Assembly: GCA_028718605.1 (NCBI GenBank)
Contig: JAQULM010000001.1
Coordinates: 519,006-583,005, forward strand
From: Patescibacteria group bacterium
GTDB taxonomy: Bacteria > Patescibacteriota > Patescibacteriia > UBA10025 > JAHIVO01
Direction: 5' to 3'
DNA: 64,000 nt
Part shown: in pieces, positions 3,445 through 62,813 of the stretch
Layout: every line of letters begins with the position of its first letter
Position numbering within the stretch: the first letter of the stretch is position 1
Notes under the pieces: model-generated
Databases searched by the model: none
Told to the model about the DNA's origin: nothing
What the model saw: the letters and a program-made list of their open reading frames with translations, nothing else
Program-made: the position numbers and the translations under genes

Positions 3445-4266
3445 ATGGACGCTAGGACGACCCAATCGTATACAGAACGCGCCAAGCAAGCAACCAACCC
3501 GGTTGCGAAGCAGCTTTTCGAACTGATGGAACAGAAAAAAACGAACCTCTGCCTCGCGAACGACGAATCTGATGTTGAAAAATTCCTCGGCCATATCGAA
3601 CAGCTGGGCGAATACCTCGCGGTTTTAAAAATGCACGTGGACATCCTGGAAAACTTCACCCCGGGCGTGATTGTAAAAATCCGCTCGCTCGCGAAAAAAC
3701 ACAACTTCCTTATTTTCGAGGACCGGAAATTCGCCGACATCGGCAATACCGTATCAATGCAGTACGAAAAAGGTGTATATAAAATTGCCGAGTGGGCGCA
3801 CCTCACCAATTGCCATGTAATCCCCGGCCCTGGCATTATTGAGGGCTTAAAAACTGTTGCGGACAAGCAAACAGAACCGCGCGGCCTGATACTCCTTGCC
3901 CAGATGAGTTCAAAAGGCAATCTCGCCACTGACGAATACACCGCACAAGCCGTAACAATGGCTGAACACTACCCTGGTTTTATTGTCGGATTTATTGGTA
4001 ACGGCGGTAAAGTGAAGGAGCTAAAAAAACTGTCCGCTATCGCCTCACCTCAATTTATTATTCTAACGCCGGGCGTGAACCTGACATCAACGGGAGATAA
4101 GCTCGGCCAGCAATACACGACACCTGCGGATGTCATCGCCGCCGGCGCTGACGTGATAATCGTCGGCCGCGGCATCTACAGCGCATCCGACCCTATCAAA
4201 GCAGCGGAACAGTACCGTGCCGCCGGCTGGGAAGCATACTTAAAAAGAATAACCAATGCCCAATAA
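3445..4266 (+). CDS. pyrF: orotidine 5'-phosphate decarboxylase (long form)
   Basis: 273 aa, OMPDC-like (…LCLANDESD…FEDRKFADIGNTV…). Confidence 0.8.
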   Translation: MDARTTQSYTERAKQATNPVAKQLFELMEQKKTNLCLANDESDVEKFLGHIEQLGEYLAVLKMHVDILENFTPGVIVKIRSLAKKHNFLIFEDRKFADIGNTVSMQYEKGVYKIAEWAHLTNCHVIPGPGIIEGLKTVADKQTEPRGLILLAQMSSKGNLATDEYTAQAVTMAEHYPGFIVGFIGNGGKVKELKKLSAIASPQFIILTPGVNLTSTGDKLGQQYTTPADVIAAGADVIIVGRGIYSASDPIKAAEQYRAAGWEAYLKRITNAQ

Positions 4267-4374
4267 CCAATATCCAATTACTGGTCATGGGACATTATAA
4301 TAATTGGTCATTCATTGGAAATTGGATATTGGGGAATTGAATAATTTAAAAAACTTCAATTAATTACGCTACCT
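4267..4374. promoter_or_regulatory. AT-rich intergenic region with a 13-bp perfect inverted repeat (CCAATATCCAATT … AATTGGATATTGG) and nested TGGTCAT repeats
   Basis: Palindromic arms about 45 bp apart, read directly in sequence, between pyrF and the carbamoyltransferase gene. Candidate operator or terminator region. Confidence 0.3.
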
Positions 4375-5310
4375 ATGAAACACTGCCTCCACCTCAAAGA
4401 CTGGCAAGCCGACGAAATACGCGCTGTTATCGAGCGCGCGATGGAGATTAAAAAAAACCCTGCTGAGCACGGCGACGTACTGAAAAACAAGACGCTCATC
4501 ATGCTGTTCCAAAAGGGATCAACGCGCACCCGGCTCTCGTTTGAAGCGGGAATGACGCAGCTCGGCGGGCATGGTATCTTCATTGACCAAAAAACAACGC
4601 AGTTCTCGTTGACTGATTTCCGGGACGAGATACGGGCAGTGATGCGGTTCGGCGATGTCCTGATGTTCCGCGCTTTAAAAGCCGCGGACGTGCTCACCGC
4701 AGCCTCGTTCAACCAGATACCGGTCATCGACGCGTGCTCAGAAAAGTACCACCCCTGCCAGGCATTGGGCGACCTCCTGACAATGGCTGAGCATTCAGGC
4801 GGATTAGATAAAATTAAAAAAGTCGTCTGGCTCGGCATTGAAAATAACGTTTCAAACACGCTGAAACTCGCATGCGCTAAGCTCGGGATTGACGTATGGA
4901 TCGCCGCGCCAAAAGCGCACCAACCGAGCATTGATCCAGAATTGAACAAGATGGCTGATGCCACGGGTAAAGTTCATACAACGCTCGACCTCAAAGAGGC
5001 AATGGAGGGTGCGGACTACGTGCATACCGACACCTGGGTCGATATGGAATTCTTCGACAATGGCAAGGTAAAGCCGAGCTTCCAGGAAGAGTTTGACGCG
5101 CGGGTCGCGATGTTCAAGCCGTACCAGCTCAACGCCGCCCTGCTCGAAAAGCACAATCCCAACGCGAAAATCATGCACTGCATGCCCTGCCATATCGGCT
5201 ATGAAATAACGTCCGATGCTATCAACCACCCGAATTCAGTCATCTTCGACCAGGCAGAGAACCGGATGCACATCCAAAAAGCGATCATCTTGCATCTGCT
5301 CGGGAAATAA
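4375..5310 (+). CDS. carbamoyltransferase of the ATCase/OTCase family with ornithine-carbamoyltransferase-like motifs
   Basis: STRTR carbamoyl-phosphate motif, HPCQALGDL, DTWVDM, HCMPCH (OTC-like HCLP), and an OTCase-type C-terminal tail FDQAENRMHIQKAI. It sits where pyrB would be expected. Confidence 0.7.
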   Translation: MKHCLHLKDWQADEIRAVIERAMEIKKNPAEHGDVLKNKTLIMLFQKGSTRTRLSFEAGMTQLGGHGIFIDQKTTQFSLTDFRDEIRAVMRFGDVLMFRALKAADVLTAASFNQIPVIDACSEKYHPCQALGDLLTMAEHSGGLDKIKKVVWLGIENNVSNTLKLACAKLGIDVWIAAPKAHQPSIDPELNKMADATGKVHTTLDLKEAMEGADYVHTDTWVDMEFFDNGKVKPSFQEEFDARVAMFKPYQLNAALLEKHNPNAKIMHCMPCHIGYEITSDAINHPNSVIFDQAENRMHIQKAIILHLLGK

Positions 5311-10316: not shown

Positions 10317-10958
10317 ATGCAATATGACATCCTCACAATTTTCCCTAATGCCTTCGTTTCTTACTGCAATGAGAGCATCCTGAAGCGTGCCCAAGACGGA
10401 AAGCATGTTTCGATTCGCATCCATGATATTCGCCGGTTTACGACGGACAAGCATAGAACGGTCGATGACCGCCCGTATGGCGGCGGACCCGGCATGGTAA
10501 TGAAGCCTGAGCCGATCTATCGGTGCCTCAATGCAATCAAGCGAAAAAAGAAATCACGGACGATTCTCTTGAGCGCTCGCGGAAAAACATACACCCAGCG
10601 CATTGCGAAGCGGCTCGCAAAGTATGACCAGCTCCTGTTTATTTGCGGGCACTATGAAGGCGTTGACGAACGCATATCGAAATACGCAGACGAGCAAATC
10701 TCCATCGGCAACTATGTACTGACTGGCGGGGAGCTTCCCGCACTCGTCATCATCGACAGTGTCACCCGATTACTGCCAGGCGTGCTCGGAGATCCCCGAT
10801 CAACGCATGATGAATCTTTTTCGCCCTGCGACACATACCGCGAATATCCCCAGTACACACGGCCTGAAGTGTTCAACGGGATGCGGGTTCCGCGTATTCT
10901 CCTCTCGGGCAACCATTCGAAAATTGCCTCCTGGAAGCGTACGAAATCCCGCACTTGA
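10317..10958 (+). CDS. trmD: tRNA (guanine37-N1)-methyltransferase
   Basis: MQYDILTIFP…GGGPGMVMKP…YVLTGGELPALV SPOUT-knot motifs. Confidence 0.85.
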   Translation: MQYDILTIFPNAFVSYCNESILKRAQDGKHVSIRIHDIRRFTTDKHRTVDDRPYGGGPGMVMKPEPIYRCLNAIKRKKKSRTILLSARGKTYTQRIAKRLAKYDQLLFICGHYEGVDERISKYADEQISIGNYVLTGGELPALVIIDSVTRLLPGVLGDPRSTHDESFSPCDTYREYPQYTRPEVFNGMRVPRILLSGNHSKIASWKRTKSRT

Positions 10959-11202
10959 CACTCCTTGGGATATGCCCTACAATGAATGGGCAATAATACA
11001 TAGTCGAAATCTTTGCTAAGTTAACAGTAAAGACGAAAGGAACGCCTAGCGGTACACACTACTTTGCTTCCACAATCAGCTGAAAATGTAGTTTTGTGTC
11101 CCGTTATAGCATCGGGATTTTTTGTTCCCTCCTTGATCGACTGCGTGAGGAATGAACCTTAACAACCGGAATCGTGATAAGAAGAAACGTCAATTTATTT
11201 TT

Positions 11203-12898: not shown

Positions 12899-12975
12899 GG
12901 GCGCGTAGCTCAGTTGGCTAGAGCGCGTCACTGATAATGACGAGGTCCCTGGTTCGATTCCAGGCGCGCCCACCA
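12899..12975 (+). tRNA. tRNA-Ile (anticodon GAT)
   Basis: GGGCGCGTAGCTCAGTTGGCTAGAGCGCGTCACTGATAATGACG…GGTTCGATTCCAGGCGCGCCCACCA; full cloverleaf; CCA encoded. Confidence 0.9.
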
Positions 12976-12979
12976 AGCA

Positions 12980-13700
12980 GGTTTTAAAAATTCTGCAAAT
13001 GCCGTAGGCATTTTGCCGAGGTAGCTCCCCGTCATTCGACGGGGCAGGCAGTGGTAGAGTCCCGTATTTATGCCGAGGAATAATATGCCGAGGTAGCTCA
13101 GTGGTAGAGCGAAGGACTGAAAATCCTTGCGTCGCCAGTCCGATTCTGGCCCTCGGCATAAATACGGGATAAACTCCGGACTGAAAATGCCGATTTTCTC
13201 TGCGAGCCATGCGAGCAGACAGAAAATCGAGCATCCCGAGTGCAACGAGGGATCTTCTCCTTGCGTCGCCAGTCCGATTCTGGCCCTCGGCATCTGCGGA
13301 GATTTTTTTAAAGTCGAGGTAGCGAAGTGGGCCGAGACCACGAGTGAAGCAAACTGCTTCGCTTCACGAGGAGTCGAGGCGGGCGAGACGATGCGGGAAC
13401 CACCGTCGAGCCCCGGAAGAGCGAAGGACTGAAAATGCCGATTTTCTCTGCGAGCCATGCGAGCAGACAGAAAATCGAGCATCCCGAGTGCAACGAGGGA
13501 TCTCGTCGCCAGGGAGCTTGCCCTGAGCGAAGCCGAAGGGATTCTTGAAATCAATAGTTCAACCAAATGGTGAAATCCGCCGCAGCTTCGCGAAGGCGGA
13601 TGGCCCTCGGCATCTTCGTGGGATAAACTCCGGACTAAAAAAATAACAAGCGTGAAACATTGGTGAATGCGACGCACGCTTGAAAAAACACCCCAAAAAT
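12980..13700 (+). repeat. mosaic of tRNA-Phe fragments and duplicated inserts surrounding one intact tRNA-Phe
   Basis: A 5' fragment GCCGAGGTAGCTC…AGTGGTAGAG split by a 22-nt hairpin insert (13015-13076). A 3' half copy TCCTTGCGTCGCCAGTCCGATTCTGGCCCTCGGCA (13258-13292). TGGCCCTCGGCA again at ~13611. An identical 78-nt repeat GGACTGAAAATGCCGATTTTCTCTGCGAGCCATGCGAGCAGACAGAAAATCGAGCATCCCGAGTGCAACGAGGGATCT at 13178-13255 and 13426-13503. GGGATAAACTCCGGACT repeated after the tRNA copies. Confidence 0.6.
13087..13158 (+). tRNA. tRNA-Phe (anticodon GAA); unusual C at position 55 of the T-loop (TCCGATT); no encoded CCA
   Basis: GCCGAGGTAGCTCAGTGGTAGAGCGAAGGACTGAAAATCCTTGCGTCGCCAGTCCGATTCTGGCCCTCGGCA. 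Acceptor, D, anticodon and T stems all pair. Confidence 0.7.
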
Positions 13701-13768
13701 GGTACGGTTACCCCTGTACCATCTCCTTTTAAAATTAAATTTGAGCTTAAAAATCTCAACGGGGATTA

Positions 13769-13836
13769 GCGCAGCTGGCTAGCGCGCGCGCTTTGGGAGC
13801 GCGAGGTCGCCGGTTCGAGTCCGGCATCCCCGACCA
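13769..13836 (+). tRNA. tRNA-Pro (anticodon TGG), CCA encoded
   Basis: CGGGGATTAGCGCAGCTGGCTAGCGCGCGCGCTTTGGGAGCGCGAGGTCGCCGGTTCGAGTCCGGCATCCCCGACCA. Confidence 0.75.
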
Positions 13837-18614: not shown

Positions 18615-18813
18615 GTAAGTAACACATTACATCATTTGGCAGACACTCCTGAGTAGGTAAGCCACCGCAACAGGAGTCGAACGGTCACGAGCGATACGAG
18701 GCGCAGCCGAAGGGGAGCGACAAACAATGCGACCAGAAGGAGCATTGTTTGGTGACCAGGACAACGAGGACGCCCGAGGGCGGACGAGGCGAAACTCCCC
18801 TTACCCGCTTGTA
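18615..18813 (+). repeat. tRNA-3'-end-tagged structured element, copy G1
   Basis: Contains CAACAGGAGTCGAACGGTCAC…CAAACAATGC-gaccagaagga-GCATTGTTTG…GTGACCAGGAC… and ends with ACTCCCCTTACCCGCTTGTA, a copy of the tRNA-Gly T-loop to 3' end plus 5 flank nt. Confidence 0.7.
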
Positions 18814-18969
18814 GACCAGTCGTTGGCAAAATTTCTCAATAATTAAATCAGTACAACAGGAGTCGAAGGGCAGCAGAGAGACAAGCGCTCGGCGCGAAGA
18901 CGAACGCCGATGGATGCGACTCAAAGGAGCATTCATCGCTGCCCAGGACGCGACTCCCCTTACCCGCTC
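18814..18969 (+). repeat. tRNA-3'-end-tagged structured element, copy G2 (tandem to G1)
   Basis: CAACAGGAGTCGAAGGGCAG…CGATGGATGC-gactcaaagga-GCATTCATCG-CTGCCCAGGACGCGACTCCCCTTACCCGCT. Confidence 0.7.
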
Positions 18970-52736: not shown

Positions 52737-52812
52737 GCGCGCATAGCTCAGCTGGTAGAGCAGTTGCCTCTTAAGCAAACGGTCGGGGGTTCGAATCCCT
52801 CTGCGCGCACCA
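52737..52812 (+). tRNA. tRNA-Lys (anticodon CTT), CCA encoded
   Basis: GCGCGCATAGCTCAGCTGGTAGAGCAGTTGCCTCTTAAGCAAACGGTCGGGGGTTCGAATCCCTCTGCGCGCACCA. Confidence 0.85.
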
Positions 52813-52984
52813 CAAAGGCCTCCTCACACAGAGGAGGTTTTTGCGTAGCAGCCATGCCGCTCAACACGCACGGATTCGAAGGGCAGGAGTGAATCAAGCG
52901 TGGAACGCGCAGATGAACGACAACGGATGCGACCCTTCGGGAGCATTCGTTGCTGCCCAGGACCCGAATCCCTCTGCGCGCACC
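52813..52984 (+). repeat. tRNA-3'-end-tagged structured element, copy K1 (same family as G1/G2)
   Basis: …GGATTCGAAGGGCAGG…CAACGGATGC-gacccttcggga-GCATTCGTTG-CTGCCCAGGACCCGAATCCCTCTGCGCGCACCA. The last 21 nt copy the tRNA-Lys 3' end. The terminator hairpin is also duplicated (52816-52843 and 52987-53012). Confidence 0.7.
52816..52843 (+). terminator. rho-independent terminator after tRNA-Lys
   Basis: GGCCTCCTC-acaca-GAGGAGG + TTTTT. Confidence 0.5.
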
Positions 52985-53083
52985 ACAAAGGCCTCCTCAC
53001 ACAGAGGAAGTTTTTGCAGTGTTCTATAGGAACAATCTGAGGAATGGAGTGTTTTTGTTGTAGAAAAACGCTATACTATCTAT

Positions 53084-62263: not shown

Positions 62264-62446
62264 TTACACGATGACGCTTCTTTCAAAACTTACAGCCTGA
62301 TTTATTTCCCAAGGATTGGTAAATCGTTGCGGGAGTTGAAGCTGACCCGAACGCGCCGACAGGCGATGAAGTGAGGGCAGCGGGCTGCGGAGGAGAGCAA
62401 GGAGCGCTGCGACGGGCTCGGGGGAGCAGAACTCCCGCCCTGGGCA
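62264..62446 (+). repeat. tRNA-3'-end-tagged structured element, copy L1 (family 2)
   Basis: …GCGGGAGTTGAAGCTGACCCGAACGCGCCGACAGGCGATGAAGTGAGGGCAGCGGGCTGCGGAGGAG…GCAGAACTCCCGCCCTGGGCA. The 5' arm GCGGGAGTTGAA is the exact antisense of the tRNA-Leu TTCAACTCCCGC. The last 17 nt copy the tRNA 3' end. Confidence 0.7.
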
Positions 62447-62643: not shown

Positions 62644-62813
62644 GAACAGGCTAGCTAGTACATAGGTAGTCTGTTTTGGGACGAAAGCGTCTACAATCCA
62701 AGAGAATTGAAGCCGACCCGAACGCGCCGACAGGCGATGAAGTGAGGGCGGCCGGCTCCGGAGGAGCGAAGTGAAAACGACGCGGGGGAGGAGAATTCCC
62801 ATTGGCCACCCCA
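62644..62813 (+). repeat. tRNA-3'-end-tagged structured element, copy H1 (family 2)
   Basis: …GAGAATTGAAGCCGACCCGAACGCGCCGACAGGCGATGAAGTGAGGGCGGCCGGCTCCGGAGGAGCG…GAGAATTCCCATTGGCCACCCCA. The 5' arm GAATTGAA is antisense to the tRNA-His TTCAATTC. The last 20 nt copy the tRNA 3' end including CCA. Confidence 0.7.

Follow-up and report, generated by a model that had tools for sequence, protein, structure and literature searches.

The 64,000-nucleotide (nt) stretch of DNA analysed here, referred to as the window, comes from a Patescibacteria group bacterium, a member of the candidate phyla radiation (GenBank assembly GCA_028718605.1, contig JAQULM010000001.1) and carries, directly after its 16S rRNA and tRNA-Ile genes, an array of tRNA-Phe sequences. 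The array consists of three copies of tRNA-Phe: the working tRNA-Phe(GAA) gene, an interrupted copy that surrounds it, called the outer ghost, and a third copy, called copy B. The gene order in the window is SMC–S16–TrmD–16S–tRNA-Ile–tRNA-Phe–…–tRNA-Pro–TerC, and the neighbours of the array (SMC, S16, TrmD, TerC, and an MGMT-like gene) are housekeeping genes. The original prediction for this locus listed tRNA fragments and repeats around an intact gene; all of these repeats lie where it placed them or within a few bases, far beyond chance, and its view of the pieces as nested, insert-bearing pseudo-copies of tRNA-Phe is supported by the results below.

The working gene is recognized both by ARAGORN and by the Rfam tRNA model, in agreement with the original prediction, and its CCA end is not encoded. 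Its T-loop reads TCCGATT (13140–13146, within 13136–13146), which places a C at position 55, where U55 is near-universal in tRNA T-loops. Related loci, cited below by L numbers, were sought in a metagenome scan with the tRNA-Phe T-arm, which returned 28 contigs; in many, if not most, of these the order is tRNA-Ile, tRNA-Phe, a variable region of 50–800 nt, and tRNA-Pro, and extra pieces of tRNA-Phe (ghosts) are found in about 15 distinct loci. All related loci retain the TCCGATT loop, among them L110, whose recovery did not depend on the search pattern, and the identical 72-nt tRNA-Phe sequence is present in at least ten of them.

The working gene is enclosed by a perfect inverted repeat of 19 base pairs (bp), detected by a repeat scan and absent from the original prediction, in which a leader arm containing a second copy of the 5' acceptor strand pairs with the 3' acceptor strand and trailer; the same pairing appears in the minimum free energy (MFE) fold. 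Of 24 distinct related loci, 14 contain perfect leader/trailer helices, 11–20 nt long, whereas shuffled controls reach at most 8–11 nt. The helix sequences covary between loci, and the pseudo-acceptor usually lies 8–10 nt 5' of the true tRNA start. A 19-bp terminal inverted repeat would also suit a miniature inverted-repeat transposable element or another transposon, but the arms covary freely between loci in the manner of an RNA helix and unlike a transposase site. No target-site duplication surrounds the inverted repeat, and the modules are found nowhere else in the window. Long leader/trailer helices (about 9–16 bp or more) also flank tRNA-Asp, -Asn, -Ile, and -Pro genes in unrelated Patescibacteria (L027, L048, L081, L083, and L104), and such helices may be a phylum-wide feature of pre-tRNAs.

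The working cassette, which comprises leader, spacer, tRNA, and trailer, is nested inside an older tRNA-Phe copy, the outer ghost, whose 5' part occupies 13015–13059 and whose 3' part occupies 13166–13292. The 5' part corresponds to the hairpin-interrupted fragment described in the original prediction and is made up of two exact tRNA-Phe segments, GCCGAGGTAGCTC and CAGTGGTAGAG, separated by an insert of 21 nt in the D-loop. The first segment is also found in L110 and L095, and the hairpin has counterparts at the homologous position in L110, L099, and L104, with stems that differ in sequence yet stay complementary. The 3' part opens with a diverged D/anticodon arm, GGGATAAACTCCGGACTGAAAAT, whose sequence through GGACTG shows 100% conservation in L095, L099, and L110 and almost complete conservation in L085, L094, and L105. 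It then continues, beyond a 67-nt structured insert in the anticodon loop, into the tRNA's 3' half, whose repetition had been noticed before and which proves to be an exact 36-nt direct repeat starting at position 38 and lying downstream of the intact gene (13258–13293 = 13124–13159, 100%). The motif GGGATAAACTCCGGACT occurs at 13166–13182 and 13620–13636, with 0.05 occurrences expected by chance; it had been said to follow the tRNA ends, and it does so after 13158 and after 13612 but not after 13292. Folded as RNA, the region 13000–13300 forms one nested structure (−141 kcal/mol, z = −8.2) in which the acceptor strands of the outer copy, 5' with 3', are base-paired.

Copy B (13313–13612), which does not appear in the original prediction, is a third, complete tRNA-Phe-like copy with inserts in its D-, anticodon-, and T-loops. 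It begins with GTCGAGGTAGCGAAGTGG, in which the 5' acceptor strand is joined to a variant D-arm, TAGCGAAGTGG, and leads into a D-loop module that is 89.5% identical to its counterpart in L083 and 76% identical to that in L086. This module consists of two helices, with compensatory changes in 9 of 20 predicted pairs among five sequences, one of them from a tRNA-Asn ghost (L081); a covariance model of the module found no convincing members beyond its training set, the only additional matches, both weak, being L095 and L074. The loss of tRNA positions 39–43 is shared by the copy B homologues of L086 and L085, and L083 and L085 have, in the corresponding position, modules related to the one that replaces the T-loop, which share the motifs TTCTTGA and ATCAAATG..GAA.TCC. 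The copy ends in TGGCCCTCGGCA, the additional acceptor copy of the original prediction. As a whole, copy B folds with z = −3.6 and has a full homologue in L086 (76% over 257 nt), partial homologues in L083, L084, and L085, and a weak one in L095.

The outer ghost and copy B share the 78-nt unit that had been reported as a perfect duplication, and the two occurrences (13178–13255 and 13426–13503) are indeed 100% identical. A 44-nt core of this unit has two matches in the window against none expected from 100 shuffles. As had also been proposed, the insert is joined to anticodon-loop sequence, the 67-nt element following position 38 in both copies. Beyond the repeat, identity is interrupted by a gap of 8 nt and resumes for 9 nt (CGTCGCCAG), a detail absent from the original prediction. 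The identical 78-mers define a cycle of 248 nt, the copy number of which is provisional. Homologues of the 67-nt insert are found in L085 (73%) and in L086 (69% over 98 nt including tRNA flanks), with compensatory stem changes as judged by eye. Breakpoints between tRNA pieces fall in the D-loop (13/14 and 18–20), at 23/24, in the anticodon loop (33/34 and 37–39), in the variable region, and in the T-loop (52–61), and the stems are spared. Variable-arm hairpins are present in L085, L094, L095, L099, L101, and L110, and their pairing is kept despite differing sequences (by eye).

Neither ghost can be restored to a tRNA by removing its inserts; after in-silico deletion of all inserts, the outer ghost and copy B both failed to be called as tRNAs at the default threshold. 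The outer ghost contains a diverged region at positions 24–31, while copy B is without the 3' anticodon-stem strand and the whole T-loop and regained tRNA status only on the artificial addition of CCTTG and a T-loop. At both the gathering threshold and E ≤ 10, Rfam detected nothing but tRNA over the array. The features of the locus and of the other loci discussed below are collected in Table 1.

Table 1. Features of the tRNA-Phe array, its surroundings, and related elements. Positions refer to the window unless a related locus is named.
Feature	Position	Strand	Remarks
Promoter-like site TTGACA-17-TACAAT before 16S	10955-10983	+	11/12 consensus matches; consensus match only
tRNA-Ile(GAT), upstream neighbour	12899-12975	+	
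Outer ghost 5' part a, GCCGAGGTAGCTC	13015-13027	+	exact tRNA-Phe positions 1-13 (acceptor 5' and D-stem 5' strands)
Outer ghost D-loop hairpin insert	13028-13048	+	21 nt; CCCCGTC/GACGGGG
Outer ghost 5' part b, CAGTGGTAGAG	13049-13059	+	exact tRNA-Phe positions 13-23
Leader arm	13060-13078	+	second 5' acceptor strand copy (GCCGAGG); perfect pairing with 13151-13169
Spacer from leader arm to tRNA 5' end	13079-13086	+	8 nt; across loci mostly 8-10 nt, at most 16
Working tRNA-Phe(GAA)	13087-13158	+	ARAGORN; Rfam tRNA 69.3 bits
Trailer arm (3' acceptor strand and trailer)	13151-13169	+	complementary to leader arm; also in MFE fold
Outer ghost 3' part start, GGGATAAACTCCGGACTGAAAAT	13166-13188	+	diverged D/anticodon arm
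67-nt structured insert, copy 1	13189-13255	+	outer ghost anticodon loop, after position 38
Outer ghost 3' part	13258-13292	+	tRNA-Phe positions 38-72, identical to working gene
Copy B 5' segment, GTCGAGGTAGCGAAGTGG	13313-13330	+	acceptor 5' strand GTCGAGG and variant D-arm TAGCGAAGTGG
Copy B two-hairpin D-loop module	13331-13417	+	87 nt
Copy B, tRNA-Phe positions 20-38	13418-13436	+	
67-nt structured insert, copy 2	13437-13503	+	identical to copy 1
Copy B, tRNA-Phe positions 44-52	13504-13512	+	positions 39-43 missing
Copy B T-loop replacement module	13513-13600	+	88 nt
Copy B 3' end, TGGCCCTCGGCA	13601-13612	+	tRNA-Phe positions 61-72
Second trailer copy and GGGATAAACTCCGGACT motif	13613-13641	+	repeat of 41 nt, 83%; 90% identical to L105
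Terminator-like hairpin and T-run after array, before tRNA-Pro	13699-13732	+	consensus match only
Structured element after tRNA-Gly(TCC)	18671-18810		all five such elements about 95-125 nt
Structured element after tRNA-Gly(TCC)	18857-18968		
Structured element after tRNA-Lys	52870-52985		
Structured element after tRNA-Leu(GAG)	62329-62446		
Structured element after tRNA-His	62697-62813		
Small GIY-YIG gene	L028 8241-8450		
Small GIY-YIG gene	L088 ~4379-4630	+	oriented with tRNA-Phe on +
Small GIY-YIG gene	L090 8718-8948	+	oriented with tRNA-Phe on +
Small GIY-YIG gene	L102 6259-6471		

The order SMC–S16–TrmD–16S–tRNA-Ile–tRNA-Phe is conserved in L083, L094, L095, and L105. Identity of the 16S rRNA gene to that of the window is 91.5% in L095, 90.9% in L105, 90.3% in L083, 84.6% in L094, and 81% in L110, and the SMC and TrmD proteins of the window and its relatives are only about 60–65% identical. 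In L095, the 5' ghost, the leader arm, the tRNA, the trailer arm, and GGGATAAACTCCGGACTG correspond nearly base for base, and the spacer to tRNA-Ile cannot be aligned. Two further loci, L110 and L111, were recovered by using a spurious 249-amino-acid open reading frame (ORF) of the window as search bait. L110 has the same topology as the window, with GCCGAGGTAGCTC, CAGTGGTAGAGTCCCG, and CGGGATAAACTCCGGACTGAA unchanged; its working tRNA differs in one acceptor pair and two T-stem pairs, and its leader and trailer arms have changed compensatorily. In L111, one leader/trailer pair is nested within another, and the insertion point of the cassette follows the anticodon loop instead of position 23. 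Arrays from independent samples can be identical (L088 = L096 = L097, and L090 = L108) or nearly so (L104 and L111, 99%). TerC of the window has its best identity, 75–77%, to Patescibacteria metagenome-assembled genomes (MAGs), and a scan of a genome collection with TerC gave 80 Patescibacteria loci; because synteny is not kept in these loci and tRNA-Phe is absent from all of them, they served only to establish the taxonomy and to supply an unbiased sample of tRNAs. Small genes that the window does not contain sit in the inter-tRNA spaces of relatives, namely a MazG-type gene (PF03819) and a gene of about 120 codons whose product has no Pfam match; these occupy the Phe–Pro space in L085, L087, L095, L100, L104, and L105 and the Ile–Phe space in L083 and L111.

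Small genes encoding GIY-YIG nuclease homologues accompany tRNA genes in some of the fetched loci, and in all four distinct cases they are situated immediately upstream of a tRNA and in the same orientation as it; the ORF has a PF01541 match at 2.6e-11. The order 5' ghost, GIY-YIG ORF, intact tRNA is found in L088/L096/L097 (Phe), L090/L108 (Phe), and L028 (Asn), and the 5' ghosts of L090/L108 and L028 carry D-loop hairpins. In L088/L096/L097, the ORF begins where the T-stem 5' strand of an upstream copy of tRNA-Phe ends and is followed by the intact tRNA and then by a second ghost; the ghost halves of L088 share a duplicated 62-nt segment, as expected from a single-crossover insertion. In L102 (Phe), the region between the GIY-YIG ORF and the tRNA contains only two 8-nt tRNA-like matches.

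Ghost copies are not confined to tRNA-Phe, as they accompany five of the eleven tRNAs in the window. Five further ghosts, none of them in the original prediction, lie downstream of four other tRNAs: two after tRNA-Gly(TCC) and one each after tRNA-Lys, tRNA-Leu(GAG), and tRNA-His. Each is a structured element with the complement of the cognate T-loop at its start and an exact 17–21-nt copy of the cognate 3' end at its finish. The closing helix differs according to the cognate tRNA, and the internal helices covary. Two families can be distinguished, one comprising the Gly, Gly, and Lys elements, which are 69–76% mutually identical, and the other the Leu and His elements, which are 92% identical over 63 nt; Rfam gave only tRNA matches in these regions at the gathering threshold and at E ≤ 10. 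At tRNA-Lys, a direct repeat (52791–52846 and 52965–53020) runs past the tRNA end through a terminator hairpin (about 54 nt, one mismatch). Across all fetched loci, downstream copies of at least 15 nt of the 3' end within 450 nt were found for about 20 distinct tRNAs, including Ala, Asp, Asn, Ile, Pro, and Gly in unrelated Patescibacteria, and upstream copies for essentially none. In L070–L072, several ghost modules of the T-loop type stand in tandem, like an array, 3' of tRNA-Ala, most of them ending in the tRNA-Ala 3' sequence GAATCTCCTTGGGTC or a degenerate version of it. A further case is L081, a distant Parcubacteria MAG in which an intact tRNA-Asn is followed, within 4118–4520, by a tRNA-Asn ghost that is without the 5' acceptor strand; its D-loop holds a two-hairpin module resembling the one in copy B, and its anticodon loop holds a true group I intron (RF00028, 73.9 bits). 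Because this ghost bears a B-type module together with a group I intron, ghosts can be tied to invaded gene copies. Judged by its distribution in these sequences, the ghost pattern is general beyond tRNA-Phe and beyond the window.

The array lies between two candidate transcription signals: a promoter-like site precedes the 16S gene and a terminator-like hairpin with a T-run follows the array, from which it is inferred that the array is likely co-transcribed with the 16S rRNA and tRNA-Ile. Between 11200 and 13836, the 16S gene is followed by tRNA-Ile, tRNA-Phe, and tRNA-Pro; since tRNA-Ala and the 23S gene are absent there, the rRNA genes are unlinked.

Mobile DNA classically targets tRNA genes, and the bacterial cases are usually simple 3'-end repeats that flank an island. 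The array is rated here as a case of tRNA-gene disruption and duplication linked to mobile DNA, and what makes it unusual is that a working tRNA is nested in disabled copies of itself, that folded, covarying modules occupy the loops of these copies, and that in relatives the arrangement is linked to GIY-YIG genes. Several known systems resemble it in part, but it fails the tests that define them, since it contains no integrase, no group I core, no reconstitutable tRNA, and no permutation. Group I introns have been described in tRNA genes of Patescibacteria, and ghost copies are not described there (Nakagawa et al. 2026; PMC13011429). They share with the array the phylum and the target, the anticodon loop, where the L081 tRNA-Asn ghost has such an intron. 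However, the inserts in the window are only 21–88 nt long, also occupy D- and T-loops, and do not match the group I model: RF00028 gave no match even at E ≤ 10 over 12960–13780, whereas the same search detected the L081 intron as a positive control. The searchable full-text literature yielded no account of bacterial ghost tRNA copies that are nested or expanded in their loops, and the pattern is apparently undescribed.

The locus at 12.99–13.65 kb can be read, with a probability of roughly 0.45, as a stack of superseded tRNA-Phe copies that arose through repeated recombinational replacement of the gene by tRNA cassettes and in which structured inserts were spread by gene conversion. A cassette composed of a tRNA and its processing helix would recombine into the resident tRNA gene by homing or by a Campbell-type event, with the tRNA itself serving as homology, and the insertion would leave the old gene behind as nested dead flanks; in relatives, the cassette still travels with a small GIY-YIG gene. 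Small structured modules would come to occupy the loops of the disabled copies and be copied from one neighbour to another by gene conversion, a process that would account for the 100% identity of the 78-nt units. The whole array would be read through from the 16S promoter, the working tRNA would be cut out, and the ghosts would be by-products. Free-standing GIY-YIG homing endonuclease genes are represented by the Seg genes of phage T4, of which SegB lies in the T4 tRNA gene cluster. The relatives resemble this system in having a small GIY-YIG gene beside tRNA genes and a disrupted target copy beside an intact one, although duplicated target-gene segments are, to our knowledge, atypical of Seg homing. 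Should the ghosts be relics, they would form a readable record of how very small genomes replaced an essential gene again and again, and a bacterial counterpart to the archaeal idea that ties tRNA-gene disruption to mobile elements.

Several observations weigh against the replacement of tRNA-Phe by successive cassettes. No GIY-YIG gene was found in the window by tblastn, and the GIY-YIG proteins of relatives, unlike the T4 case, consist of the catalytic domain only, and their cleavage of tRNA genes is putative. Some ghost segments, such as CAGTGGTAGAGTCCCG and CGGGATAAACTCCGGACTGAA, are 100% conserved across 81–92% 16S identity, even in L110, where the stems of the tRNA itself have changed, and copy B is conserved to about the same degree as the 16S rRNA (D-loop module 89.5% and 16S 90.3% in L083). 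Such conservation, which is the chief obstacle to this reading, exceeds what is expected of junk in streamlined genomes and points to selection or horizontal spread. The route by which the insert modules entered the loops is left unexplained, and individual events cannot be reconstructed, because the arrays differ strongly between fairly close relatives.

The persistence of ghost segments and of copy B across genera means that a functional explanation has to be kept in view, namely that the ghosts are tRNA-Phe-derived structured RNAs, or a processing scaffold for the embedded tRNA, that are maintained by selection and made within the 16S operon transcript. This is possible, though on the present evidence unlikely. 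It would account for the invariance of the ‘exon’ segments next to covarying inserts and helix arms, for the retained loss of positions 39–43 in the L086 homologue, for the restriction of inserts to loops, by which tRNA-like stems are kept, and for the compensatory changes in the D-loop module, the T-loop modules, and the leader/trailer arms; the strong folding z-scores, the similarity of the L083 D-loop module, and the position of the array between promoter-like and terminator-like sites are also in its favour. However, the composition of the array is very different among similarly distant relatives (the window compared with L095, L105, and L083), and the 5' ghosts of L099 (GCCGAGG) mismatch its 3' ghost (CCCAGGC). 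The helices contain both G–U and A–C mismatches, so the strand under selection is ambiguous, each module is represented by only 3–5 sequences, no Rfam family matches, and mobile elements are likewise conserved without benefit to the host. If the ghosts are functional, they would form a new family of tRNA-derived RNAs. A more specific proposal, which we consider doubtful, is an undescribed class of tRNA-derived scaffolds that carry conserved folded modules in their D-, anticodon-, variable-, and T-loops and are located beside or around the cognate tRNA; these could have a role in the processing or quality control of tRNAs, or could serve as decoys against nucleases and mobile elements directed at tRNA genes, and the tRNA-Phe locus would then be a nested ‘tRNA within a tRNA-like RNA’. 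The proposal in the original prediction that the pieces are att-site scars, here taken as attL/attR remnants of integrase-driven elements that repeatedly entered tRNA-Phe and were then deleted down to short remnants, is improbable, although att-site duplications share with the locus the copies of the tRNA 3' part that lie downstream of the intact gene and start in the anticodon loop or T-loop. These two loops are reportedly the classic crossover sites of tRNA genes in the Williams 2002 classification, the repeat lengths of 17–36 nt are typical, and the site is a hotspot for small foreign genes, with small cargo-like genes (MazG-type and GIY-YIG) in the same inter-tRNA space of relatives; an archaeal precedent also exists (PMC3293823). 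Against this, neither an integrase nor another recombinase was found in or near the array in the window or among 10 ORFs tested downstream of related arrays, and no element body is present. Moreover, the repeats are only 100–250 nt apart, simple scars do not predict 5' fragments upstream, the leader/trailer pairs are nested and not serial, and the intervening DNA consists of covarying hairpins within tRNA loops and not of arm-type protein-binding sites. Neither the 67-nt insert nor the tRNA 3' half was found when viral contigs were scanned for exact patterns, and BLAST against phages and plasmids matched only the tRNA itself.

A more far-reaching version of the original prediction, in which a working tRNA would be obtained by splicing or joining the parts of intron-containing, split, or permuted tRNA-Phe genes, is highly improbable. 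Archaeal tRNA genes can be disrupted by multiple non-canonical introns or be split or permuted (PMC3293823, PMC4033280), and in the closest archaeal case, tRNA-Thr of Caldiarchaeum, a mobile element is found together with a tRNA fragment and a newly gained intron (PMC3293823). The array is similar in that inserts occupy the D-, anticodon-, variable-, and T-loops, a fragment stands beside a complete gene, and a link to mobile DNA is proposed; the 19-bp helix would bring the halves of the outer copy together, and Patescibacteria do splice group I introns from tRNAs (PMC13011429). The host, however, is a bacterium, and no bulge-helix-bulge (BHB) motif was seen at the insert borders in MFE folds, in which the inserts form self-contained hairpins, although no dedicated BHB search was made. 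The intron mode of ARAGORN finds only three normal tRNAs, and a permissive threshold with overlapping calls yields only chimeras. The in-silico products fail as described above, copy B being without positions 39–43 and a T-loop, and there is no group I match. The order of the pieces is collinear and nested and does not place a 3' half before a 5' half, and an uninterrupted gene stands among the insert-bearing copies, so the ghosts would be unneeded as a source of tRNA-Phe. In addition, we know of no bacterial enzyme for BHB splicing. The least likely of the explanations weighed here is an assembly artefact in which strain variants, or the turns of a repeat cycle, were strung one after another. 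The identical 78-mers 248 nt apart do leave the copy number ambiguous in a de Bruijn graph, and the only other assembly found by exact TerC look-up, a 4.7-kb Logan contig, starts inside tRNA-Pro and thus provides no second assembly of the array; an identical TerC is present in SRR22315506. An artefact is nonetheless very unlikely, because independent contigs from different samples carry diverged homologous arrays with nested ghosts, B copies, and modules, and because identical arrays were assembled from independent samples; the junction fragments, at 11–14 nt, are also below assembler k-mer length.

Other candidates were considered for parts of the array and set aside. Integron attC sites were rejected in that no R-box motifs are present, a TnpB/IscB-type guide RNA in that the candidate guide is partly base-paired and no nuclease gene accompanies it, and a hammerhead-like core in that no match was obtained. 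A pseudoknotted acceptor stem in T-loop ghosts was seen for tRNA-Lys only, and a role as a primer-binding site was considered and dropped. A further hairpin, CAAGCGTG...CACGCTTG (13650–13686), has A-runs on the plus strand and would be a terminator if read on the minus strand, and no minus-strand gene faces it. The 249-amino-acid ORF that served as search bait lies on the minus strand (12928–13677) and spans the whole array; it is judged spurious because it overlaps both tRNAs. False ORFs of this kind from related loci have been deposited as hypothetical proteins (P0001 and P0002), and ghosts thus mislead annotation through spurious ORFs called across the arrays.

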